From NCBI RefSeq assembly GCF_054482595.1, contig NZ_CM137008.1: a stretch of 64,000 nt of DNA; one strand, given 5' to 3'. Position 1 is the first letter of the stretch, and every line of letters begins with the position of its first letter. The position numbers and the translations under genes were made by a program. The notes beneath the pieces are model-generated. The model searched no databases, was not told where the DNA came from, and worked only from the letters and a program-made list of their open reading frames with translations. Of this stretch, positions 1,764 through 13,334 are shown piece by piece.

Positions 1764-2177
1764 ATGGCTAATAAACCTTCGGCAGAAGAACTGAAAAAAA
1801 ATTTGTCCGAGATGCAGTTTTACGTGACGCAGAATCATGGGACAGAGCCGCCATTTACGGGTCGTTTACTGCATAACAAGCGTGACGGCGTATATCACTG
1901 TTTGATCTGCGATGCCCCGCTGTTTCATTCCCAAACCAAGTATGATTCCGGCTGTGGCTGGCCCAGTTTCTACGAACCGGTGAGTGAAGAATCCATTCGT
2001 TATATCAAAGACTTGTCACATGGAATGCAGCGCATAGAAATTCGTTGCGGTAACTGTGATGCCCATCTGGGGCATGTCTTCCCCGACGGGCCGCAGCCAA
2101 CGGGCGAACGTTATTGTGTTAACTCTGCTTCTTTACGCTTCACTGATGGCGAAAACGGCGAAGAAATCAATGGTTGA
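1764..2177 (+). CDS. msrB: Peptide methionine sulfoxide reductase MsrB
   Basis: Translation [21 protein letters not shown]... with two CxxC zinc motifs ([19 protein letters not shown]) and catalytic RYCVNSASL; start taken at MANKP (137 aa). Confidence 0.92.
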
Positions 2178-2218
2178 AAAAACGATTCAGCAACTTATTC
2201 CACAGGAGCGGAAAAATT

Positions 2219-2491
2219 ATGAATCTTGATGACATTATCAACAGCATGACGCCTGAGGTATACCAGCGTTTGTCGACCGCCGTTGAACTGGGGAAATGGC
2301 CTGATGGCGTTGCGTTGACCGAGGAACAAAAAGAGAACTGCCTGCAACTGGTGATGCTGTGGCAAGCCCGCAATAATACCGAAGCACAGCATATGACAAT
2401 TGACACAAATGGTCAGATGGTCATGAAGAGCAAACAACAGTTAAAAGAAGATTTTGGTATCTCAGCAAAGCCTATTGCCATGTTTAAGTAA
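2219..2491 (+). CDS. yeaC: DUF1315-family protein YeaC
   Basis: ORF 2174-2491; start placed at the internal MNLDDIINSMTPEVYQ to give 90 aa, matching recalled YeaC. Confidence 0.8.
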   Translation: MNLDDIINSMTPEVYQRLSTAVELGKWPDGVALTEEQKENCLQLVMLWQARNNTEAQHMTIDTNGQMVMKSKQQLKEDFGISAKPIAMFK

Positions 2492-2750
2492 GTGGTTTGT
2501 CCCCTTTTTGCCGCGGTTATAAAGGGGATAGCCAACAATAACCCCACGACTCATCTCAATTATCTCGTCACGACCAGGCAAAGCCCCAGCCCGGTCTCTT
2601 GCCGTCGCGTTCACGCCTGAATGACTTCTCCTGAACTTAAGTCTCAGACCTATTTGGCCGGTAATCCCTCTCAAATTTGCTCCTTTTGCGTTCAGCCTTC
2701 CATCAACCTGTAACAGAACCAGCCATTTTCTGCGTAATTGTGATCTGAGT

Positions 2751-2782
2751 TGTAAAACGCAGATCATTATCTGTGTTTTACA
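2751..2782. promoter_or_regulatory. 32-bp near-perfect palindrome (tgtaaaacgcagatca / ttatctgtgttttaca) about 80 bp upstream of ydjL; candidate operator
   Basis: 14 of 16 positions are self-complementary; outer 8-bp arms TGTAAAAC/GTTTTACA are perfect. No flanking T-run, so unlikely to be a terminator. Confidence 0.4.
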
Positions 2783-2860
2783 GATTTAATGTTGACCTCA
2801 AAAATCATGTGGGTAAGTATGATGACCATCTAAGCAAAACAAAACACAGAGGATGACGCA

Positions 2861-3937
2861 ATGAAAGCACTGGCTCGGTTTGGCAAAGCCTTTGGCGGCT
2901 ACAAGATGATTGATGTCCCACAACCCATGTGTGGCCCGGAAGATGTAGTGATTGAAATTAAAGCCGCGGCAATCTGCGGCGCAGACATGAAGCACTACAA
3001 TGTCGATAGCGGTTCTGATGAGTTTAACTCTATCCGCGGCCATGAGTTCGCAGGTTGTATTGCGCAGGTTGGTGAAAAAGTCAAAGACTGGAAAGTGGGG
3101 CAACGCGTCGTATCGGATAACAGCGGTCACGTTTGCGGCGTTTGTCCGGCCTGTGAACAAGGTGATTTTCTGTGTTGTACAGAAAAAGTAAACCTTGGTC
3201 TGGATAATAATACCTGGGGCGGTGGTTTTTCCAAATATTGTCTGGTTCCTGGTGAAATTCTCAAAATTCATCGTCATGCGTTGTGGGAAATCCCTGATGG
3301 TGTTGATTATGAGGACGCAGCCGTACTTGACCCTATCTGTAATGCCTACAAATCCATCGCGCAGCAATCGAAATTCCTTCCTGGTCAGGATGTGGTCGTC
3401 ATCGGCACTGGCCCACTCGGGCTGTTCTCCGTACAAATGGCGCGAATTATGGGGGCGGTAAATATCGTCGTCGTTGGTCTGCAAGAAGATGTGGCGGTCC
3501 GCTTCCCGGTTGCAAAAGAACTGGGTGCGACGGCAGTAGTAAATGGTTCTACCGAAGATGTGGTGGCGCGCTGCCAGCAAATTTGTGGCAAAGACAATCT
3601 GGGACTGGTGATTGAATGCTCCGGTGCCAATATCGCACTGAAACAAGCCATCGAAATGCTCCGCCCGAACGGGGAAGTTGTACGCGTTGGAATGGGCTTC
3701 AAACCTCTTGATTTCTCGATTAATGACATTACCGCCTGGAACAAAAGCATCATTGGGCATATGGCCTATGACTCCACCTCATGGCGTAACGCTATCAGGC
3801 TATTAGCCAGCGGCGCTATCAAAGTCAAACCGATGATCACGCATCGTATCGGCCTGTCGCAATGGCGCGAAGGGTTTGATGCGATGGTCGATAAAACCGC
3901 AATCAAAGTGATCATGACTTACGACTTTGATGAATAA
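2861..3937 (+). CDS. ydjL: Zn-dependent medium-chain alcohol/polyol dehydrogenase YdjL
   Basis: 358-aa ORF with GHEFAGCI zinc-ADH motif, Cys-rich structural zinc site (CGVCPACEQGDFLCC) and GTGPLG Rossmann motif. Confidence 0.9.
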   Translation: MKALARFGKAFGGYKMIDVPQPMCGPEDVVIEIKAAAICGADMKHYNVDSGSDEFNSIRGHEFAGCIAQVGEKVKDWKVGQRVVSDNSGHVCGVCPACEQGDFLCCTEKVNLGLDNNTWGGGFSKYCLVPGEILKIHRHALWEIPDGVDYEDAAVLDPICNAYKSIAQQSKFLPGQDVVVIGTGPLGLFSVQMARIMGAVNIVVVGLQEDVAVRFPVAKELGATAVVNGSTEDVVARCQQICGKDNLGLVIECSGANIALKQAIEMLRPNGEVVRVGMGFKPLDFSINDITAWNKSIIGHMAYDSTSWRNAIRLLASGAIKVKPMITHRIGLSQWREGFDAMVDKTAIKVIMTYDFDE

Positions 3938-3963
3938 CCACTCTCCTGAAGGAACGTTATCGC

Positions 3964-5343
3964 ATGGAACAGATAACAAAACCGCATTGTGGTGCACGGC
4001 TGGATCGCTTACCGGATTGCCGCTGGCATTCATCAATGTTTGCCATCGTCGCGTTTGGCTTGCTTGTCTGCTGGAGTAATGCCGTTGGTGGCTTGATCCT
4101 CGCGCAGCTGAAAGCGTTGGGCTGGACAGATAATTCCACCACAGCCACATTCTCAGCAATCACGACCGCCGGAATGTTTCTCGGTGCGCTGGTGGGCGGC
4201 ATCATTGGCGACAAAACCGGTCGCAGAAATGCGTTCATCCTCTATGAGGCCATTCATATTGCCTCGATGGTTGTCGGTGCTTTCTCACCGAATATGGATT
4301 TCCTTATTGCCTGCCGTTTTGTGATGGGAGTTGGGCTGGGAGCTTTACTGGTTACGCTGTTTGCTGGTTTCACCGAATATATGCCCGGTAGAAATCGTGG
4401 AACGTGGTCAAGTCGGGTTTCCTTTATTGGCAACTGGTCATATCCGCTCTGTTCATTGATAGCGATGGGACTCACGCCGCTGATTAGTGCAGAGTGGAAC
4501 TGGCGGGTACAACTGCTTATCCCTGCAATATTGTCGCTTATCGCTACGGCGCTGGCCTGGCGCTACTTTCCTGAATCCCCGCGCTGGCTGGAATCGCGCG
4601 GACGGTATCAGGAAGCCGAGAAAGTCATGCGGAGTATAGAAGAAGGCGTCATACGCCAGACAGGTAAACCTTTGCCGCCCGTGGTTATTGCTGATGACGG
4701 TAAAGCACCACAAGCGGTGCCATATTCAGCCTTACTGACAGGAGTATTACTGAAACGCGTGATATTAGGCTCTTGTGTGCTGATTGCCATGAACGTTGTG
4801 CAGTACACACTAATTAACTGGTTGCCAACGATATTCATGACCCAGGGGATTAATTTAAAAGACTCGATTGTTTTAAATACCATGAGTATGTTTGGCGCGC
4901 CATTTGGCATTTTTATTGCCATGCTGGTGATGGATAAAATTCCGCGTAAAACAATGGGTGTGGGGCTATTAATCCTGATTGCGGTGCTCGGATATATCTA
5001 TTCACTGCAAACCAGCATGTTGCTCATAACGTTGATTGGTTTCTTCCTGATTACTTTCGTCTATATGTACGTTTGCTATGCCTCGGCAGTGTATGTCCCT
5101 GAGATCTGGCCGACAGAGGCCAAACTCCGTGGCTCCGGTCTGGCGAATGCGGTAGGGCGAATCAGTGGTATTGCCGCACCTTATGCCGTTGCAGTGCTGC
5201 TCAGTAGTTATGGCGTTACGGGAGTCTTTATTCTTCTGGGGGCGGTTTCAATTATTGTCGCAATTGCTATCGCCACCATTGGAATCGAAACCAAAGGTGT
5301 CTCCGTTGAAAGTTTAAGTATTGATGCAGTAGCCAATAAATAA
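3964..5343 (+). CDS. ydjK: MFS-family transporter YdjK (sugar-porter-like)
   Basis: 459-aa hydrophobic ORF with MFS signature GDKTGRRNA after TM2 and a repeated 6+6 TM layout; starts 27 bp after ydjL. Confidence 0.88.
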   Translation: MEQITKPHCGARLDRLPDCRWHSSMFAIVAFGLLVCWSNAVGGLILAQLKALGWTDNSTTATFSAITTAGMFLGALVGGIIGDKTGRRNAFILYEAIHIASMVVGAFSPNMDFLIACRFVMGVGLGALLVTLFAGFTEYMPGRNRGTWSSRVSFIGNWSYPLCSLIAMGLTPLISAEWNWRVQLLIPAILSLIATALAWRYFPESPRWLESRGRYQEAEKVMRSIEEGVIRQTGKPLPPVVIADDGKAPQAVPYSALLTGVLLKRVILGSCVLIAMNVVQYTLINWLPTIFMTQGINLKDSIVLNTMSMFGAPFGIFIAMLVMDKIPRKTMGVGLLILIAVLGYIYSLQTSMLLITLIGFFLITFVYMYVCYASAVYVPEIWPTEAKLRGSGLANAVGRISGIAAPYAVAVLLSSYGVTGVFILLGAVSIIVAIAIATIGIETKGVSVESLSIDAVANK

Positions 5344-5359
5344 TACGGGTGGATTCAAA

Positions 5360-6403
5360 ATGAAAAATTCAAAAGCAATATTGCAGGTGCCGGGCACAAT
5401 GAAAATTATTTCAGCAGAAATACCAGTGCCTAAAGAAGATGAAGTTTTGATTAAAGTAGAATATGTCGGTATTTGTGGTTCAGATGTACATGGTTTTGAA
5501 TCAGGTCCGTTTATTCCGCCTAAAGACCCAAATCAAGAAATTGGCCTGGGTCATGAATGCGCCGGGACGGTTGTGGCTGTGGGAAGCCGCGTGCGCAAAT
5601 TTAAACCGGGGGATCGGGTAAATATCGAACCTGGCGTTCCTTGCGGTCACTGTCGTTACTGTCTGGAAGGCAAATATAACATCTGCCCGGACGTTGATTT
5701 TATGGCGACACAACCCAACTACCGCGGCGCATTAACGCACTATCTGTGTCATCCGGAGAGCTTTACTTACAAACTGCCCGACAATATGGACACGATGGAA
5801 GGGGCGCTGGTGGAGCCTGCCGCAGTCGGGATGCATGCCGCGATGCTGGCAGATGTTAAACCGGGTAAGAAGATAATTATTCTGGGAGCGGGTTGTATTG
5901 GTTTGATGACGTTGCAAGCGTGCAAATGCCTGGGAGCAACGGAAATTGCCGTCGTTGATGTGCTGGAAAAACGTCTGACAATGGCGGAACAGCTTGGTGC
6001 GACAGTGGTTATTAACGGCGCAAAAGAAGACACTATTGCACGCTGTCAGCAATTTACCGAAGACATGGGCGCAGATATTGTTTTCGAAACAGCGGGTTCT
6101 GCGGTCACCGTTAAACAGGCACCTTATCTGGTAATGCGCGGCGGTAAAATTATGATTGTTGGTACTGTACCCGGCGATTCGGCAATCAATTTCCTCAAAA
6201 TCAATCGCGAAGTCACTATCCAGACGGTATTCCGCTATGCCAATCGTTATCCGGTCACGATTGAAGCTATTTCTTCAGGGCGATTCGATGTGAAATCGAT
6301 GGTGACACATATTTACGATTACCGTGATGTACAACAGGCATTTGAAGAGTCGGTTAACAACAAACGCGACATTATTAAAGGCGTTATTAAGATTAGCGAT
6401 TAA
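5360..6403 (+). CDS. ydjJ: Zn-dependent alcohol/polyol dehydrogenase YdjJ
   Basis: 347-aa ORF; GHECAGTV zinc-ADH motif, CGHCRYCLEGKYNIC structural zinc site, GAGCIG Rossmann motif. Confidence 0.9.
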   Translation: MKNSKAILQVPGTMKIISAEIPVPKEDEVLIKVEYVGICGSDVHGFESGPFIPPKDPNQEIGLGHECAGTVVAVGSRVRKFKPGDRVNIEPGVPCGHCRYCLEGKYNICPDVDFMATQPNYRGALTHYLCHPESFTYKLPDNMDTMEGALVEPAAVGMHAAMLADVKPGKKIIILGAGCIGLMTLQACKCLGATEIAVVDVLEKRLTMAEQLGATVVINGAKEDTIARCQQFTEDMGADIVFETAGSAVTVKQAPYLVMRGGKIMIVGTVPGDSAINFLKINREVTIQTVFRYANRYPVTIEAISSGRFDVKSMVTHIYDYRDVQQAFEESVNNKRDIIKGVIKISD

Positions 6404-6423
6404 TTAATACGGGAGAACAGAAC

Positions 6424-7260
6424 ATGCTCGCAGATATCAGATATTGGGAAAACGATGCCACAAATAAACGTTATGCTATTGCCCATTTTAATGTATGGAA
6501 TGCAGAAATGTTGATGGGCGTTATCGACGCAGCCGAAGAAGCGAAATCACCGGTTATTATTTCTTTTGGCACAGGTTTTGTCGGCAACACCTCATTTGAA
6601 GATTTCTCTCACATGATGGTATCAATGGCACAAAAAGCAACGGTGCCGGTAATAACTCATTGGGATCATGGTCGGAGTATGGAGATTATTCATAACGCCT
6701 GGGCTCATGGTATGAATTCATTAATGCGTGATGCTTCCGCATTTGATTTCGAAGAAAATATTCGCTTAACCAAAGAGGCTGTCGATTTCTTCCATCCGCT
6801 GGGTATTCCGGTAGAGGCGGAATTAGGGCATGTCGGTAATGAAACCGTTTATGAGGAAGCGCTGGCGGGCTATCACTATACCGATCCTGACCAGGCGGCT
6901 GAATTTGTTGAACGTACGGGCTGTGACTCATTGGCTGTCGCCATCGGCAACCAGCATGGGGTTTATACGTCAGAGCCACAATTGAACTTTGAGGTCGTCA
7001 AACGCGTACGCGATGCCGTGTCTGTTCCGCTGGTTTTGCATGGCGCATCGGGGATCAGTGATGCCGACATTAAAACTGCAATTTCGTTGGGTATCGCGAA
7101 AATCAACATCCATACGGAGCTCTGTCAGGCCGCAATGGTCGCAGTGAAAGAAAACCAGGATCAGCCTTTCCTGCATTTAGAACGTGAAGTACGTAAAGCT
7201 GTAAAAGAACGGGCATTGGAAAAAATTAAACTGTTCGGTTCTGATGGCAAAGCGGAATAA
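6424..7260 (+). CDS. ydjI: Class II ketose-bisphosphate aldolase family protein YdjI
   Basis: 278-aa ORF recognised as a GatY/KbaY/FbaA-like class II aldolase (HxDH and His-rich metal site). Confidence 0.88.
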   Translation: MLADIRYWENDATNKRYAIAHFNVWNAEMLMGVIDAAEEAKSPVIISFGTGFVGNTSFEDFSHMMVSMAQKATVPVITHWDHGRSMEIIHNAWAHGMNSLMRDASAFDFEENIRLTKEAVDFFHPLGIPVEAELGHVGNETVYEEALAGYHYTDPDQAAEFVERTGCDSLAVAIGNQHGVYTSEPQLNFEVVKRVRDAVSVPLVLHGASGISDADIKTAISLGIAKINIHTELCQAAMVAVKENQDQPFLHLEREVRKAVKERALEKIKLFGSDGKAE

Positions 7261-7264
7261 TGAT

Positions 7265-8212
7265 ATGGATAATCTCGACGTTATTTGTATAGGTGCCGCT
7301 ATTGTTGATATTCCATTGCAACCGGTCAGTAAAAATATCTTTGATGTGGATTCTTATCCTCTTGAAAGAATCGCAATGACCACCGGGGGTGATGCAATAA
7401 ATGAAGCAACAATTATTTCTCGTCTGGGCCATCGTACAGCATTAATGAGGCGTGTTGGTAAAGATGCCGCAGGACAATTTATTCTCGACCATTGCCGCAA
7501 AGAGAATATTGATATTCAAAGCCTGAAACAGGACGTCAGCATAGATACCTCTATTAATGTTGGACTGGTGACGGAGGATGGCGAGCGGACGTTTGTCACA
7601 AACCGTAACGGCAGTCTGTGGAAATTGAATATTGACGATGTTGATTTTGCTCGGTTTTCCCAGGCAAAATTATTATCACTGGCCAGTATTTTCAACAGTC
7701 CACTATTGGATGGTAAAGCGCTAACAGAAATTTTTACGCAAGCTAAAGCCCGGCAGATGATTATCTGTGCCGATATGATCAAACCGCGGTTGAATGAAAC
7801 GCTGGATGATATTTGCGAAGCATTGAGTTATGTCGATTATCTGTTTCCTAATTATGCCGAGGCAAAATTACTCACCGGGAAAGAGACACTGGATGAAATT
7901 GCTGACTGCTTTCTTGCGTGCGGCGTAAAAACGGTGGTGATTAAAACGGGTAAAGACGGCTGCTTTATCAAGCGTGGTGACATGACGATGAAGGTGCCGG
8001 CGGTCGCAGGAATAACCGCCATCGACACCATTGGCGCGGGCGATAACTTTGCTTCAGGTTTTATTGCGGCACTGTTAGAAGGCAAAAATCTGCGTGAATG
8101 CGCACGCTTTGCCAATGCAACGGCGGCTATCTCGGTTCTAAGCGTCGGTGCCACCACCGGCGTAAAAAACAGAAAGCTGGTCGAACAATTGCTGGAAGAA
8201 TACGAAGGATAA
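7265..8212 (+). CDS. ydjH: PfkB-family carbohydrate kinase YdjH
   Basis: ORF 7244-8212; start placed at MDNLDVICIGAAIVD (315 aa); C-terminal GAGDNFASGF ribokinase/PfkB motif. Confidence 0.88.
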   Translation: MDNLDVICIGAAIVDIPLQPVSKNIFDVDSYPLERIAMTTGGDAINEATIISRLGHRTALMRRVGKDAAGQFILDHCRKENIDIQSLKQDVSIDTSINVGLVTEDGERTFVTNRNGSLWKLNIDDVDFARFSQAKLLSLASIFNSPLLDGKALTEIFTQAKARQMIICADMIKPRLNETLDDICEALSYVDYLFPNYAEAKLLTGKETLDEIADCFLACGVKTVVIKTGKDGCFIKRGDMTMKVPAVAGITAIDTIGAGDNFASGFIAALLEGKNLRECARFANATAAISVLSVGATTGVKNRKLVEQLLEEYEG

Positions 8213-8221
8213 TGAAGGCAA

Positions 8222-9202
8222 ATGAAAAAGATACCTTTAGGCACAACGGATATTACGCTTTCGCGAATGGGGTTGGGGACATGGGCCATTGGCGGCGGTC
8301 CTGCATGGAATGGCGATCTCGATCGGCAAATATGTATTGATACGATTCTTGAAGCCCATCGTTGCGGCATTAATCTGATTGATACTGCACCAGGATATAA
8401 TTTTGGCAATAGTGAAGTTATCGTCGGTCAGGCGTTAAAAAAACTGCCCCGTGAACAGGTTGTAGTAGAAACCAAATGCGGCATTGTCTGGGAACGAAAA
8501 GGAAGTTTATTCAACAAAGTTGGCGATCGGCAGTTGTATAAAAACCTTTCCCCGGAATCTATCCGCGAAGAGGTAGAAGCCAGCTTGCAACGTCTGGGTA
8601 TTGATTACATCGATATCTACATGACGCACTGGCAGTCGGTGCCGCCATTTTATACGCCGATCGCTGAAACTGTCGCAGTGCTTAATGAGTTAAAGGCTGA
8701 AGGGAAAATTCGCGCTATAGGCGCTGCTAACGTCGATGCCGACCATATCCGCGAGTATCTGCAATATGGTGAACTGGATATTATTCAGGCGAAATACAGT
8801 ATCCTCGACCGGGCAATGGAAAACGAACTGCTGCCGCTATGTCGTGATAATGGCATTGTGGTTCAGGTTTATTCCCCGCTAGAGCAGGGATTGTTGACCG
8901 GCACCATCACTCGTGATTACGTTCCGGGCGGCGCTCGGGCAAATAAAGTCTGGTTCCAGCGTGAAAACATGCTGAAAGTGATTGATATGCTTGAACAGTG
9001 GCAGCCACTTTGTGCTCGATATCAGTGCACAATTCCCACTCTGGCACTGGCGTGGATATTAAAACAGAGTGATTTAATCTCCATTCTTAGTGGGGCTACT
9101 GCACCGGAACAGGTACGCGAAAATGTCGCAGCACTGAATATCAACTTATCGGATGCAGACGCAACATTGATGAGGGAAATGGCAGAGGCCCTGGAGCGTT
9201 AA
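8222..9202 (+). CDS. ydjG: Aldo-keto reductase YdjG
   Basis: 326-aa ORF with AKR fold hallmarks (IDTAPGY, catalytic tetrad context); starts 10 bp after ydjH. Confidence 0.88.
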   Translation: MKKIPLGTTDITLSRMGLGTWAIGGGPAWNGDLDRQICIDTILEAHRCGINLIDTAPGYNFGNSEVIVGQALKKLPREQVVVETKCGIVWERKGSLFNKVGDRQLYKNLSPESIREEVEASLQRLGIDYIDIYMTHWQSVPPFYTPIAETVAVLNELKAEGKIRAIGAANVDADHIREYLQYGELDIIQAKYSILDRAMENELLPLCRDNGIVVQVYSPLEQGLLTGTITRDYVPGGARANKVWFQRENMLKVIDMLEQWQPLCARYQCTIPTLALAWILKQSDLISILSGATAPEQVRENVAALNINLSDADATLMREMAEALER

Positions 9203-9228
9203 ATACTCAACACGATTCACCTCTGTTT

Positions 9229-9256
9229 CTGTGAAAACTGTGATGAAAATCTGTGA
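9229..9256. promoter_or_regulatory. Three direct CTGTGA repeats (starts 9229, 9238, 9251) upstream of ydjF; candidate operator or CRP half-sites
   Basis: Read directly: ctgtgaaaa / ctgtgatgaaaat / ctgtgattcaaa, between the ydjG stop and the ydjF GTG start. Confidence 0.3.
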
Positions 9257-9338
9257 TTCAAACAGGTTATTTTGAAAGTAAACATCGGTTATGCGATAAT
9301 CGCGCTAATGTGATGTAAAAAGATACAGGGGTGTAATC

Positions 9339-10097
9339 GTGGCGGCAAAAGACAGGATTCAGGCAATTAAGCAAATGGTTGCCAACGATAAAAAGGTGAC
9401 AGTCTCAAATTTGAGTGGGATTTTTCAGGTAACCGAAGAAACCATTCGCCGCGATCTTGAGAAGCTGGAAGATGAAGGCTTTTTGACCAGAACCTATGGT
9501 GGTGCTGTTTTAAATACAGCGATGTTGACGGAGAATATCCATTTTTATAAGCGCGCTTCATCGTTTTATGAAGAGAAGCAGCTTATTGCACGCAAGGCAC
9601 TACCCTTTATCGACAATAAAACCACCATGGCAGCCGATTCCAGTAGTACCGTAATGGAATTGCTCAAATTGTTACAGGACCGTAGTGACCTGACGTTGCT
9701 AACCAACTCGGCGGAAGCGATTCATGTTCTGGCTCAGTCAGAAATTAAAGTCGTTTCAACGGGTGGGGAACTAAACAAAAATACACTTTCACTGCAAGGA
9801 AGAATTACTAAAGAGATCATCAGCCGCTACCATGTCGATATCATGGTAATGAGTTGTAAAGGTCTTGATATTAACAGCGGCGCGCTGGACTCTAATGAAG
9901 CGGAAGCTGAAATCAAAAAGACAATGATCCGTCAGGCGACAGAAGTTGCGTTATTGGTTGATCACTCTAAGTTTGATCGCAAAGCTTTTGTCCAGTTAGC
10001 TGACTTTAGTCATATTAATTACATAATAACTGATAAATCACCGGGTGCAGAGTGGATAGCATTTTGCAAAGACAATAATATCCAGCTGGTGTGGTAA
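9339..10097 (+). CDS. ydjF: DeoR-family transcriptional regulator YdjF (GTG start)
   Basis: 252-aa ORF; N-terminal HTH (TVSNLSGIFQVTEETIRRDLEKLE) and DeoR C-terminal sugar-phosphate-binding domain; initiation codon is GTG. Confidence 0.88.
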   Translation: MAAKDRIQAIKQMVANDKKVTVSNLSGIFQVTEETIRRDLEKLEDEGFLTRTYGGAVLNTAMLTENIHFYKRASSFYEEKQLIARKALPFIDNKTTMAADSSSTVMELLKLLQDRSDLTLLTNSAEAIHVLAQSEIKVVSTGGELNKNTLSLQGRITKEIISRYHVDIMVMSCKGLDINSGALDSNEAEAEIKKTMIRQATEVALLVDHSKFDRKAFVQLADFSHINYIITDKSPGAEWIAFCKDNNIQLVW

Positions 10098-10214
10098 TTT
10101 AAGCACACGTTGTCAATATTATTTGTTCCTGCGCCTGGAAATAAAATGATGATAAAGATGCGGCAAGTGAATTTGCCGCAATTGCTACCTTTTTTAGCAA
10201 ATCCGAGGCACCCA

Positions 10215-11573
10215 ATGGAACAATATGATCAAATTGGCGCAAGACTGGACCGCTTGCCTTTGGCCCGGTTTCATTATCGTATATTTGGTATTATAAGCTT
10301 TAGTCTGTTATTAACAGGGTTTTTGAGTTACTCCGGTAATGTCGTCTTAGCAAAGCTGGTAAGCAATGGATGGTCAAATAATTTCCTCAATGCCGCCTTT
10401 ACCTCGGCATTAATGTTTGGTTATTTCATCGGCTCTCTTACCGGTGGGTTCATCGGTGATTACTTTGGGCGGCGCAGGGCGTTTCGCATAAATCTTCTCA
10501 TCGTCGGTATTGCTGCAACAGGGGCCGCTTTTGTCCCTGATATGTACTGGCTCATCTTCTTTCGCTTCCTGATGGGAACAGGAATGGGGGCGCTGATTAT
10601 GGTTGGCTATGCCTCATTTACGGAGTTTATCCCCGCGACGGTGCGTGGAAAATGGTCCGCGCGGCTCTCATTTGTTGGTAACTGGTCGCCCATGCTGTCT
10701 GCGGCGATAGGTGTGGTGGTTATCGCTTTTTTTAGTTGGCGGATAATGTTTCTGCTGGGTGGTATTGGCATACTGTTAGCCTGGTTTCTTTCAGGTAAAT
10801 ACTTTATTGAGTCGCCACGATGGCTGGCAGGGAAAGGGCAAATCGCAGGTGCAGAAAGCCAACTTCGTGAAGTAGAGCAGCAAATTGAAAGAGAGAAGAG
10901 TATTCGTTTACCCCCGCTTACTTCGTATCAGAGCAACAGCAAGGTTAAAGTAATCAAGGGTACTTTCTGGCTCCTGTTTAAAGGTGAAATGTTACGACGT
11001 ACATTAGTCGCGATTACTGTTTTAATTGCAATGAACATTTCGCTTTATACCATCACCGTATGGATACCGACCATATTTGTTAACTCCGGCATTGATGTCG
11101 ATAAATCAATATTAATGACCGCTGTTATTATGATTGGCGCTCCGGTAGGAATATTTATTGCGGCATTAATTATTGATCATTTTCCTCGTCGGTTATTTGG
11201 CTCCACCTTACTTATTATTATTGCCGTGTTAGGCTATATCTATTCAATTCAGACTACAGAGTGGGCGATTTTAATCTATGGCCTGGTGATGATATTCTTT
11301 TTATACATGTATGTTTGCTTCGCGTCGGCGGTTTATATCCCGGAGCTTTGGCCAACGCATTTACGCCTGCGCGGTTCGGGTTTCGTTAATGCCGTCGGAC
11401 GGATCGTCGCAGTCTTCACGCCCTATGGCGTTGCGGCATTATTAACACATTATGGGTCGATCACGGTGTTTATGGTACTTGGTGTCATGTTATTGCTCTG
11501 TGCGCTGGTTCTCTCCATTTTTGGCATCGAAACGCGAAAGGTGTCGTTGGAAGAGATTTCTGAGGTGAATTAA
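10215..11573 (+). CDS. ydjE: MFS-family transporter YdjE
   Basis: ORF 10110-11573; start placed at MEQYDQIGARLDRL (452 aa); GDYFGRRRA MFS motif; paralogous in layout to YdjK. Confidence 0.85.
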   Translation: MEQYDQIGARLDRLPLARFHYRIFGIISFSLLLTGFLSYSGNVVLAKLVSNGWSNNFLNAAFTSALMFGYFIGSLTGGFIGDYFGRRRAFRINLLIVGIAATGAAFVPDMYWLIFFRFLMGTGMGALIMVGYASFTEFIPATVRGKWSARLSFVGNWSPMLSAAIGVVVIAFFSWRIMFLLGGIGILLAWFLSGKYFIESPRWLAGKGQIAGAESQLREVEQQIEREKSIRLPPLTSYQSNSKVKVIKGTFWLLFKGEMLRRTLVAITVLIAMNISLYTITVWIPTIFVNSGIDVDKSILMTAVIMIGAPVGIFIAALIIDHFPRRLFGSTLLIIIAVLGYIYSIQTTEWAILIYGLVMIFFLYMYVCFASAVYIPELWPTHLRLRGSGFVNAVGRIVAVFTPYGVAALLTHYGSITVFMVLGVMLLLCALVLSIFGIETRKVSLEEISEVN

Positions 11574-11665
11574 ATCTTTCGTTGATGGCATCAATTGCCA
11601 GATGTGCCACTGACGTGTTTTATTTGGCCTACAATGCCAGTACAGAATTGTAGGCCAGCGTAAAA

Positions 11666-12307
11666 TTACCCCTGCGTCTCTTCCCAGTCTGCCAGCGTAT
11701 ATAGCGTTGCCCCAGCTGCTGACATCTCCATAAACGCGTGCGCACTGTCCTGGGGCTGGATATTCACGCCACGACAACCATCGGTAATCACGTTTACCTT
11801 ATAACCTAACTGTAACGCGTCCAGCACGGTAAACTTCACGCAATAGTCAGTAGCCAGGCCCATAACGATCAATTCATCGATTTCATGATCGCGTAACCAG
11901 TCATCGAGAGAGGTTTTCTGCCGACGGCCGTTATCAAAAAAGGCACTGTAACTGTCAACTAAAGGATTTTCGCCTTTATGGAACACCGCTGCGATCGCTT
12001 TTTGGTTCAGTAACGGATGTAATTGTGCGCCTTCACTGTTCTGCACACAGTGATCTGGCCAGAAGGTTTGTGGCAAACCGTCGAGTTGGCCTGGCGTATA
12101 AGGCTCTACACCGTGCTGGCTGGCAAAACTGCCGTGATTCGCCGGGTGCCAGTCCTGACTGGCGATAACCGCTTCACCGCGCGACTGGCACCAGTCAATC
12201 AGGCGGTTAGCGACATCCACCGTACTGTCACCTTCCGGCACGGCGAGCGCGCCACCAGCACAGAAATCATTTTGTAAATCGACCAGTAACAGGGCGCGAG
12301 GGGGCAT
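11666..12307 (-). CDS. pncA: Nicotinamidase / pyrazinamidase
   Basis: Isochorismatase-fold ORF (LLLVDLQNDFC; catalytic Cys in DYCVKFT); start placed at MPPRALLL (213 aa). Confidence 0.9.
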   Translation of the reverse strand: MPPRALLLVDLQNDFCAGGALAVPEGDSTVDVANRLIDWCQSRGEAVIASQDWHPANHGSFASQHGVEPYTPGQLDGLPQTFWPDHCVQNSEGAQLHPLLNQKAIAAVFHKGENPLVDSYSAFFDNGRRQKTSLDDWLRDHEIDELIVMGLATDYCVKFTVLDALQLGYKVNVITDGCRGVNIQPQDSAHAFMEMSAAGATLYTLADWEETQG

Positions 12308-12317
12308 TGCAGTCTCC

Positions 12318-13334
12318 TTAATCATCTGGCGTCAGTTCGCCGCGCAGGTTTTGGCTCATGGCCTTGCGAATGGTTTCAGTATCCAGTTCCTGGCTAAGCA
12401 GGTAATGCAGTTTGGTTAGCGTGGCTTCTACAGTCATATCTGCACCGCCAATAACGCCAGCATGGGCGAGGGCGTTACCGGTGGCATAACCACCCATATT
12501 CACTTTACCGGACATACATTGTGTCAGGTTGACCACCACAATACCGCGATCGCTGGCTTCTTGTAATTCCTGCAGGAAGGCTTTGTTTTGTGGCGCATTA
12601 CCCACGCCATATGAGCGCAGAATCAATGCTTTCACCGGTTGGCGCAGAAAATTGCGCACGACGTCAGCAGAAATCCCTGGATAAATCGTCACTACGCCAA
12701 TTGGTTGTGGGGTGATTGGATGAACGATTAATTCCCCTTCACCGTGCGGGGCGGGTGGCGTATTCAAACGACGAATATGGATACCTGCTTCCAGTAACGG
12801 AGGAAGGTTTGGAGAGGCAAACGCATCAAAACCATCGGCATGGGCTTTGGTAGTGCGGTTGCCGCGATACAATCGGTTATTGAAAAAGAGCGTTACTTCG
12901 TTGATCGGATAATTCGCCGCAACGTACAACGCATTCAGCAGATTAATTTGTCCGTCAGAGCGTAACTCAGCCAGCGGGATTTGTGACCCTGTCACAATGA
13001 CCGGTTTACCGAGATTTTCGAGCATGAACGACAGCGCAGAGGCGGTATATGCCATCGTATCGGTGCCGTGCAGAATGACAAAACCATCATAGTCGTCATA
13101 GTGCGCTTTAATATCTTCAGCAATATGCTGCCAGTCTTCCGGCGTCATGTCTGAAGAATCCATCAGCGGCGTATATTCATGAATGGTGAAATCTGGCATC
13201 TCCGGACGATGGAATTCCGGCATCAGCGCCAGTTGGCGTTGTAGATGACCTGACACCGGTATATAACCCTGCTCGGAACGCTGCATCCCGATGGTCCCGC
13301 CCGTGTAGGCGACGTAAATTGATTTCTTTTGCAT
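12318..13334 (-). CDS. ansA: Cytoplasmic L-asparaginase I
   Basis: Asparaginase signature YTGGTIGM near the N-terminus; start placed at MQKKSIYVAYTGG (338 aa), not the upstream in-frame Met of the 385-aa ORF. Confidence 0.9.
   Translation of the reverse strand: MQKKSIYVAYTGGTIGMQRSEQGYIPVSGHLQRQLALMPEFHRPEMPDFTIHEYTPLMDSSDMTPEDWQHIAEDIKAHYDDYDGFVILHGTDTMAYTASALSFMLENLGKPVIVTGSQIPLAELRSDGQINLLNALYVAANYPINEVTLFFNNRLYRGNRTTKAHADGFDAFASPNLPPLLEAGIHIRRLNTPPAPHGEGELIVHPITPQPIGVVTIYPGISADVVRNFLRQPVKALILRSYGVGNAPQNKAFLQELQEASDRGIVVVNLTQCMSGKVNMGGYATGNALAHAGVIGGADMTVEATLTKLHYLLSQELDTETIRKAMSQNLRGELTPDD

Follow-up and report, generated by a model that had tools for sequence, protein, structure and literature searches.

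Which nutrient do the ydj genes of Escherichia coli serve, and why do only some strains carry them? We followed these questions in a stretch of 64,000 nucleotides (NCBI RefSeq assembly GCF_054482595.1, contig NZ_CM137008.1), which we call the window and whose numbering we use throughout. From 2861 to 11573 on its plus strand, the open reading frame (ORF) list and the RefSeq annotation give eight intact genes in the order ydjL, K, J, I, H, G, F, E. The ydj cluster is one of the remaining "y-gene" carbohydrate operons of E. coli without a physiological substrate. It is found in about four-fifths of E. coli genomes and in many dominant gut Firmicutes, and the ydjL promoter has been validated as a sensor for the healthy mouse gut. 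We think it probable that ydj is an optional, horizontally spread catabolic island, controlled by YdjF, for an acidic higher-carbon (about C7-C9) sugar or sugar acid that is met in the gut. The identity of the substrate would reveal a nutrient niche that E. coli and Lachnospiraceae share or contest.

The ydjLKJIHG-ydjF-ydjE cluster is already known, annotated and partly characterised, and the question of its substrate stands. An earlier note on this DNA, made from the sequence alone, had described the cluster as a complete pathway for a sugar or sugar acid; as written, it adds nothing beyond annotation and publications. What is new here is the island behaviour of the cluster, its synteny across phyla, a candidate operator, the anionic-type transporter families and an AlsE-like epimerase. 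The candidate operator and the cross-phylum context make the substrate question somewhat more testable.

An island in E. coli and its spread across phyla

The span 2861-11573 begins exactly at the ydjL start codon and ends exactly at the ydjE stop codon. We compared a 9.5-kb region around it (2500-12000) with complete E. coli genomes using megablast, and 5425 of the 5426 genomes had a match. The region is 100% identical to XH990, O157:H16 Santai and other strains, where RefSeq names the genes ydjL through ydjE, and its nucleotide identity to K-12 MG1655 is 99.0%. The K-12 ydjLKJIHG-ydjF-ydjE genes (b1776-b1769 region) are the same locus with equal gene order and lengths; the differences are strain-level substitutions only, and the window has the allele of the XH990 and O157:H16 Santai type. 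The cluster is real annotated gene content and no chance pattern, and no gene of the window copy is disrupted. RefSeq and Pfam bear out the gene names, order and families that the earlier note had given. We took the antisense ORFs over the genes (for example 2798-3760, minus strand, 320 aa) to be shadow ORFs of the annotated genes.

The ydj genes sit between yeaC and pncA. RefSeq places gapA, msrB and yeaC in the upstream flank and pncA (convergent), ansA and sppA downstream. At least 80% of the 2500-12000 query is held by 4260 of the 5426 genomes and about 21% are without the island; genomes at the low end of the ranking match the pncA end of the query only. STEC1589 (locus L082) is an example of a strain without the island, and there pncA comes directly after yeaC. 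Homology between this locus and the window ends at 2489, returns weakly (80%) at 11608-11658 and is full from 11661. Its yeaC-pncA spacer is about 160 bp long (L082:8846-9005), with about 95 bp that have no match in the window and a remainder that resembles 11608-11658 (80%). From where the homology ends and returns, we conclude that the promoter region and the eight genes, ydjF and ydjE among them, form a single presence/absence unit of about 9.1 kb. We place it at approximately 2490-11607, using the homology limits in L082 and the guanine-plus-cytosine (GC) content, which is 0.44-0.50 inside the island and 0.51-0.53 downstream.

The prevalence of ydjI differs by phylogroup, at 96.6% in A versus 29.9% in B1 (PMC9602453), and a pan-genome study in which ydjH is called a "true deletion" likewise agrees with loss of the island. 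There are signs that the island is still decaying in some E. coli lineages. Insertions of IS3, IS1 or IS5, or partial deletions, were seen in the island in records H13, H22, H31, H36, H41 and H42 (O157:H7 ATCC 43890 and strain 200088 are examples). Between the convergent ydjE and pncA there is a hairpin resembling a repetitive extragenic palindrome (GGCCTACAAT...ATTGTAGGCC, 11626-11656), which is partly kept (80%) in island-less strains. This hairpin gave a chance, sub-threshold match to a microRNA model in Rfam.

We scanned for YdjI with one genome per species and confirmed 148 loci, and the locus analyses cover 80 of the 148. Identity to the E. coli YdjI reaches 91-98% across other Enterobacterales, and Gilliamella stands at 73%. 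Among Lachnospiraceae and other Clostridia the range is 74-87%, and among Atopobiaceae 77-80%. We found 79% for Veillonella, 77% for Anaerococcus and 82% for a Synergistaceae metagenome-assembled genome. The order L-K-J-I-H-G-F is retained in most non-enterobacterial loci, in at least four phyla and with Erysipelotrichaceae and Synergistaceae included (example loci are L022-L081, such as L022:3215-11900, L040, L055, L064 and L066). In the cross-phylum loci, YdjL is 70-86% and YdjJ 54-80% identical. We ruled out contamination as the source of the non-enterobacterial loci, since some of them lie on large contigs of isolates grown in culture (Schaedlerella arabinosiphila, Clostridium puniceum and Lachnotalea glycerini) whose gene content is unlike that of E. 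coli. Because the identity between phyla is unusually high, these comparisons point to horizontal transfer of the whole ydj module among gut and host-associated bacteria.

A more specific form of this idea is that ydj is a self-contained mobile "gut nutrient" module, made up of enzymes, permease, YdjF and operator, which would move between Enterobacteriaceae and strict anaerobes (Lachnospiraceae, Veillonella, Anaerococcus and Atopobiaceae) and would serve an acidic C7-C9 sugar. The sugar might come from the host, the diet or the microbial envelope, for example as a derivative of 3-deoxy-D-manno-octulosonate (Kdo), heptose or uronate. We put this form forward tentatively and stop short of calling it probable.

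Enzymes, transporters and the likely substrate

Pfam supports every family that the earlier note had named, with E-values from 1e-17 to 1e-89. All five enzymes keep their catalytic and metal-binding motifs, and nucleotide-binding motifs are also present. YdjL (2861-3937, 358 aa, named so by RefSeq) and YdjJ (5360-6403, 347 aa) are Zn-dependent medium-chain dehydrogenases (PF08240 and PF00107) with 28% identity to each other. Both have the ADH_N and ADH_zinc_N domains, the catalytic Cys/His/Glu, four structural-Zn cysteines and a GxGxxG motif. In YdjL we find Cys39, His61, Glu62, the four structural-Zn cysteines and GTGPLG, and in YdjJ the Zn ligands and GAGCIG. The two stay under the equivalog cut-offs, with best scores to Tdh (218 versus 380), IolM (197 versus 450) and IdnD (176 versus 469).

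YdjI (6424-7260, 278 aa) is a class II (Zn) aldolase that depends on dihydroxyacetone phosphate (DHAP). It passes the family models PF01116 (298 bits, cut-off 25.5) and TIGR00167 (323.8 bits, cut-off 215.6). The catalytic Asp81-His82 pair, His178 and His206 are present, which gives the three His ligands for zinc, and we take these residues to be the equivalents of D82, H83, H180 and H208 of AgaY (1GVF). YdjI is below the equivalog cut-offs for fructose-bisphosphate (FBP) and tagatose-bisphosphate aldolases, with 246 versus 343 for TIGR01859, 226 versus 443.6 for TIGR01858 and 186 versus 542 for NF009375 (KbaY). Over its full length it matches PDB 6OFU, "YdjI aldolase", which is the K-12 crystal-structure sequence.

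YdjH (7265-8212, 315 aa) is a PfkB-family sugar kinase (PF00294, 245 bits) with the GG switch at residues 41-42 and DTIGAGD, the anion-hole and catalytic-Asp motif, at 254-260. It matches PDB 3H49/3IN1, "sugar kinase ydjH", over its full length and is under the equivalog cut-offs for ribokinase (TIGR02152, 132 versus 299.65) and IolC (TIGR04382, 141 versus 300). YdjG (8222-9202, 326 aa) is an aldo-keto reductase (AKR; PF00248, 226 bits) that scores 628.6 bits against a cut-off of 550 for NF049922, "NADH-dependent methylglyoxal reductase". Apart from YdjG, the names of the ydj products in NCBIfam (June 2026) and in the source are generic. YdjK (3964-5343, 459 aa) and YdjE (10215-11573, 452 aa) are transporters of the major facilitator superfamily (MFS; PF07690 and PF00083). 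They are 44% identical over their full length, so the second MFS gene is a paralogue of the first, as had been claimed. Their best-scoring model is TIGR00895, the aromatic acid/H+ symporter family, where scores of 147 and 156 bits do not reach membership at the cut-off of 418.55.

These families allow a route to be proposed. YdjK, and possibly its paralogue YdjE too, would import an anionic substrate. YdjL, YdjJ and YdjG would then adjust the oxidation state, either to yield a 2-ketose that is negatively charged at its far end or to process the aldehyde product. YdjH would phosphorylate the C1 hydroxyl of the ketose, and YdjI would split the ketose-1-phosphate into DHAP and an aldehyde-acid. 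The chemistry of the kinase and the aldolase comes from in vitro work in the literature; the redox order, the transport substrate, the operator-binding protein, the sign of control by YdjF (repression or activation) and the natural substrate are what we infer. The earlier note had called the pathway complete. The families for uptake, oxidation, phosphorylation and cleavage are indeed present, and the completeness had been read off family membership.

In vitro, YdjH and YdjI favour long-chain monosaccharides with a carboxylate terminus (Huddleston et al. and Huddleston and Raushel, Biochemistry 2019, as summarised in PMC9602453), and the same summary, from 2022, describes the functions of the operon as "only partially determined". 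The literature that we searched names no natural substrate and no YdjF effector; the enzymology is cited here through PMC9602453 and PMC11194214. The earlier statement that the physiological substrate is not established holds up, and its account of the substrate left out the published in vitro specificities and structures of YdjH and YdjI (6OFU, 3H49/3IN1).

Accessory genes also bear on the substrate. We clustered all ORFs of the loci and then scanned them against protein families. In 29 non-enterobacterial loci there is a gene of the ribulose-phosphate-3-epimerase family between ydjL and ydjK, nearest to the D-allulose-6-phosphate 3-epimerase AlsE (254.5 bits, cut-off 271). A transporter of the sodium:dicarboxylate symporter family (SDF) is encoded beside ydjF in 27 loci, and 12 loci with versions of the cluster that have no ydjK carry genes for a Liv-type ATP-binding cassette (ABC) permease and ATPase. 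This makes three unrelated transporter solutions, every one from a family known for anionic or zwitterionic organic acids. The swaps to carboxylate and amino-acid families fit an anionic substrate and match the carboxylate preference of YdjH and YdjI. Examples of the accessory genes are at L022:4304-4999, L064:11645-13003 and L049:11920-12780.

We made two side observations on gene content. A few non-enterobacterial loci are also near an RraA-like aldolase and a class I/II aminotransferase. At L005:2882-4135 (minus strand) and in 11 other Citrobacter/Klebsiella-type loci, a secreted-looking protein of 417 aa with a DGIDLDWEYP motif is encoded divergently just 5' of ydjL. It is GH18 chitinase-like by motif alone, and the E. 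coli window has none.

The aldolase and epimerase results can be read in another way, in which the substrate is an uncharged polyol or ketose that comes to carry two phosphates, as in the galactitol/tagatose-1,6-bisphosphate route or in one through a heptulose or octulose bisphosphate. YdjI would then be a true ketose-bisphosphate aldolase, with the uronate acting as a surrogate for phosphate. YdjI does pass TIGR00167, a subfamily model named "ketose-bisphosphate aldolase". YdjL and YdjJ show sub-threshold likeness to dehydrogenases of polyols, idonate and galactitol-1-phosphate, and the 29 non-enterobacterial clusters with the AlsE-like epimerase homologue, itself under its cut-off, would fit as well. 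In the 2019 work on YdjI, a phosphate terminus was reportedly accepted as well. However, the island has no phosphotransferase system (PTS) and no second kinase, the three alternative transporter types all belong to families for anionic or zwitterionic acids, and YdjI is under all of the FBP and tagatose-bisphosphate aldolase equivalog cut-offs. PMC9602453 also gives carboxylate-terminated long sugars as the preferred substrates. We consider a bisphosphate route unlikely.

YdjG points in a different direction, as it is a confirmed NADH-dependent methylglyoxal reductase with its own NCBIfam equivalog. The cluster could then be mainly a stress or detoxification module, directed at methylglyoxal, other reactive aldehydes, acid or osmotic stress, and no nutrient pathway. 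In the literature, overexpression of ydjK improved growth at high salt, and ydj genes are commoner in lactic-acid-resistant E. coli from meat plants (PMC9602453). But detoxification leaves unexplained why a kinase-aldolase core, a permease and a DeoR-type regulator are conserved in a fixed order across phyla, and the link to acid resistance is confounded by phylogroup, given the prevalence of ydjI in A and B1 noted above. We regard this explanation as very improbable, and return to ydj as a catabolic island for an acidic sugar.

Regulatory DNA of the cluster

In the proposed reading, ydj expression is silent in broth and switched on in the mouse gut. The ydjL promoter was silent before gavage and flipped a memory circuit on during mouse gut transit (PMC6561318), and the same paper cites raised abundance of YdjG in the cecum. 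The literature handles ydjLKJIHG as a single operon, which is listed as a newly predicted Crp-activated unit (PMC8085971). Rho-dependent termination has been located in the ydjL leader or the early part of the ORF by mapping of 3' ends. YdjF appears in the literature only in lists, as an uncharacterised factor of the DeoR family.

The regulator gene ydjF (9339-10097, 252 aa) encodes a DeoR/GlpR-family protein with an N-terminal HTH_DeoR domain (PF08220, residues 6-60) and a C-terminal DeoRC sensor domain (PF00455, residues 77-233). Its GTG start at 9339, which the earlier note had also chosen, is backed by RefSeq, by the helix-turn-helix from residue 6 and by regulator models that align from residue 1. 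Sensors of this family (DeoR, GlpR, AgaR, UlaR) typically bind sugar phosphates. YdjF would act on the ydjL promoter via ATCTGT-N5-ACAGAT near the -35, probably answering to a phosphorylated intermediate.

In an alignment of 14 Enterobacterales genera, conservation upstream of ydjL is limited to the last ~125 bp. The predicted ydjL promoter is at 2792-2820 (plus strand), with -35 TTGACC at 2792-2797, a 17-nt spacer and -10 AAGTAT at 2815-2820; the TTGA and the A2, A5 and T6 of the -10 are invariant or nearly so. Upstream of it, at 2769-2785, is a perfect palindrome, ATCTGT-GTTTT-ACAGAT, that is conserved in Enterobacterales and recurs across phyla, and this is our candidate for the YdjF operator. 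The palindrome is the right part of a 14-nt inverted repeat (2751-2764 / 2769-2782), in which the upstream arm (TGTAAAACGCAGAT, plus strand) is an inverted copy of the downstream one; the arms are 93% complementary and 4 nt apart. A putative third operator half-site (TCTGTGTTT, 2842-2850, minus strand) overlaps the ydjL Shine-Dalgarno region.

A nearly identical element of 15-22 nt (AATCTTTRAAACAMAGAAAAT) is present in 1-4 copies 5' of the ydjL orthologues of Firmicutes and Actinobacteria, just upstream of a TTGACA box. The 9-mer TCTKTGTTT occurs 99 times in 78 upstream regions, versus 1.5 expected. In 1.26 Mb of related loci we count 102 sites of TCTKT-N5-AMAGA (15 nt) versus 4.8 in local shuffles, which is about 20-fold; 41 of the 102 sites precede ydjL orthologues and 14 precede the gene for the SDF transporter. 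The strict palindrome lies 5' of ydjL in 17 of 21 Enterobacterales and 22 of 56 other loci (39 of 56 for the 9-mer), compared to about 2-3% of all 260-bp tiles. Among judgeable non-enterobacterial loci, 32 of the 42 that have a YdjF orthologue carry the element, versus none of the 7 that lack one (Fisher p = 2e-4, uncorrected for relatedness). Because the element is conserved, is enriched upstream of ydjL and co-occurs with YdjF orthologues, we propose TCTKT-N5-AMAGA as a candidate YdjF operator. If it is the operator, a YdjF/operator reporter could be used to find the natural inducer in gut contents.

A looser palindrome, ATCTGT-N7-ACAGGT, lies upstream of ydjF at 9249-9267 and is followed by TTGAAA-17-GATAAT at 9272-9300 (together 9249-9300, plus strand). 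The latter is the best sigma-70 match of the whole region (10/12 with TG), and its geometry is like that of the ydjL promoter. The palindrome abutting this promoter match suggests that ydjF may be autoregulated.

We did not take up several other candidates. A TGTGATC box at 2739-2745 (plus strand) might be a weak CRP half-site; six of its seven bases are invariant, and T65 is kept in at least 90% of the 14 regions. The CRP consensus TGTGA-N6-TCACA, with up to 2 mismatches, was not found upstream of ydjL, ydjF or ydjE, and its total in the window is under chance. The sequence alone gives no support to the Crp activation predicted in PMC8085971, as there is a conserved half-site only. Within ydjL, an operator-like palindrome (TCTGTGTTGTACAGA, 3169-3183, codons F-L-C-C-T-E) is nearly invariant at synonymous positions across Enterobacterales. 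We do not claim it as a second operator because it is missing at the same codons of the Firmicutes orthologues and sits on the conserved Zn-binding Cys motif. An Rfam scan of 2000-12500 found no real RNA family, and the predicted ydjL 5' leader is no more stably folded than shuffled sequences (z = +1.5). The 16 nt at 2764-2779, which overlap the operator, are 88% complementary to the ydjL Shine-Dalgarno region (2841-2856). We set aside sequestration of the ribosome-binding site by this segment, as it would require a transcript that starts upstream of the predicted promoter.

The spacing of the genes fits the description of six tightly packed genes in the earlier note. From ydjL to ydjG the gaps are 26, 16, 20, 4 and 9 bp, while 136 bp separate ydjG from ydjF and 117 bp separate ydjF from ydjE. 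On the plus strand we found no terminator-like sites in the L-to-G gaps or between ydjG and ydjF; there is a weak one within ydjG (8630-8644). The longest plus-strand ORFs are 2861-3937, 3964-5343, 5360-6403, 6424-7260, 7244-8212, 8222-9202, 9339-10097 (GTG) and 10110-11573. For two of these we set the longest-ORF start aside and followed RefSeq, using ATG 7265 in place of 7244 for ydjH (315 aa) and ATG 10215 in place of TTG 10110 for ydjE (452 aa).

The place of ydjE is less settled. It adjoins ydjF in 22 of the 22 Enterobacterales loci that cover that side. Outside Enterobacterales, the only copies close to the cluster are distant ones (35-52% identity) of Veillonella, C. puniceum and Gilliamella, and by this comparison ydjE is a cluster member specific to Enterobacterales. 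The ydjF-ydjE gap has a GC-rich hairpin at 10159-10180 with an 8-bp perfect stem, possibly a weak terminator; its plus-strand T-run is about 11 nt 3' of the hairpin, so it is not a canonical one. One explanation is that ydjE is a paralogue expressed on its own, which handles a different substrate and in Enterobacterales is carried along with the island. This would be consistent with the 117-bp gap and its hairpin, with an upstream region that has no operator-like element, and with the absence of ydjE from most non-enterobacterial clusters. However, YdjE has its full-length identity to YdjK, is always beside ydjF in the Enterobacterales loci above, and goes missing along with the seven others in about 21% of E. 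coli genomes. We think an independent ydjE is possible but somewhat doubtful. The earlier assignment of ydjE to the same pathway would fit its gain and loss with the other seven genes in E. coli; its own upstream region, the missing candidate operator and its absence outside Enterobacterales speak against it. We also rejected ydjE as a NiaP-type niacin transporter, an idea suggested by its neighbour pncA: the literature searched has no link between ydjE and NiaP, the names are generic, and ydjE is lost with ydj and not with pncA.

Several points count against reading ydj as a YdjF-controlled island for an acidic C7-C9 sugar. The catalytic efficiency of YdjI on octuluronate is reportedly modest. 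The sole demonstrated activity of YdjG is methylglyoxal reduction, and we infer the roles of YdjL, YdjJ and YdjG in the route. The AlsE-like ketose-phosphate 3-epimerase in many Firmicutes versions hints at a phosphate and not a carboxylate at the far end. On the regulatory side, the shuffle and Fisher statistics are inflated by kinship among the Lachnospiraceae loci, and the candidate operator is centred about 15 nt upstream of the -35, a position that would suit an activator just as well as a repressor. Finally, the best YdjI substrate, L-glycero-L-galacto-octuluronate, is synthetic and is described in PMC9602453 as having no natural abundance.

Comparison with known systems

The L-idonate/5-ketogluconate (idn) and hexuronate (uxa/uxu) systems are like ydj in that secondary carriers import sugar acids and that a Zn-type or short-chain-type (SDR) dehydrogenase interconverts aldonate and keto-uronate. 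Against the IdnD model, YdjJ scores 176 bits. However, these systems end in a dehydratase and 2-keto-3-deoxy-6-phosphogluconate (KDPG) aldolase or in gluconate kinase, whereas ydj would end in C1 phosphorylation and class II cleavage that releases DHAP.

The tagatose-1,6-bisphosphate routes of E. coli, gat and aga/kba, share more with ydj: the aldolase subfamily (GatY, KbaY, AgaY), a Zn-dehydrogenase (GatD), a DeoR-type regulator (GatR, AgaR) and a tight operon. The structures of AgaY (1GVF) and KbaY match YdjI with E-values of about 1e-49. In contrast to these routes, YdjI scores 226 against the cut-off of 443.6, the cluster has an MFS permease in place of a PTS, no GatZ/KbaZ partner is needed, and the reported substrate class is another one.

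The closest chemical logic to YdjH/YdjI is that of IolC/IolJ in Bacillus subtilis myo-inositol catabolism, where 5-dehydro-2-deoxygluconokinase and a class II aldolase give DHAP and malonate semialdehyde. In both, a PfkB kinase acts on a CH2OH beside a keto group in a molecule with a far-end carboxylate, and a PF01116 aldolase frees DHAP and an aldehyde-acid. The best NCBIfam match of YdjH is the IolC N-domain, YdjL and YdjJ match the IolM model, and the second-best PDB match of YdjG, after GSP69, is the AKR IolS. However, the scores are far under the equivalog cut-offs (141 versus 300; 182-197 versus 450), so the proteins are not orthologues. The ydj cluster also has no genes for inositol dehydrogenase, dehydratase or hydrolase, and its in vitro substrates are C7-C9 and not C6 deoxy acids. 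Because the equivalog tests failed, ydj is a member of neither the Iol nor the gat/aga system, yet it resembles the logic of IolC/IolJ and, more loosely, that of gat/aga.

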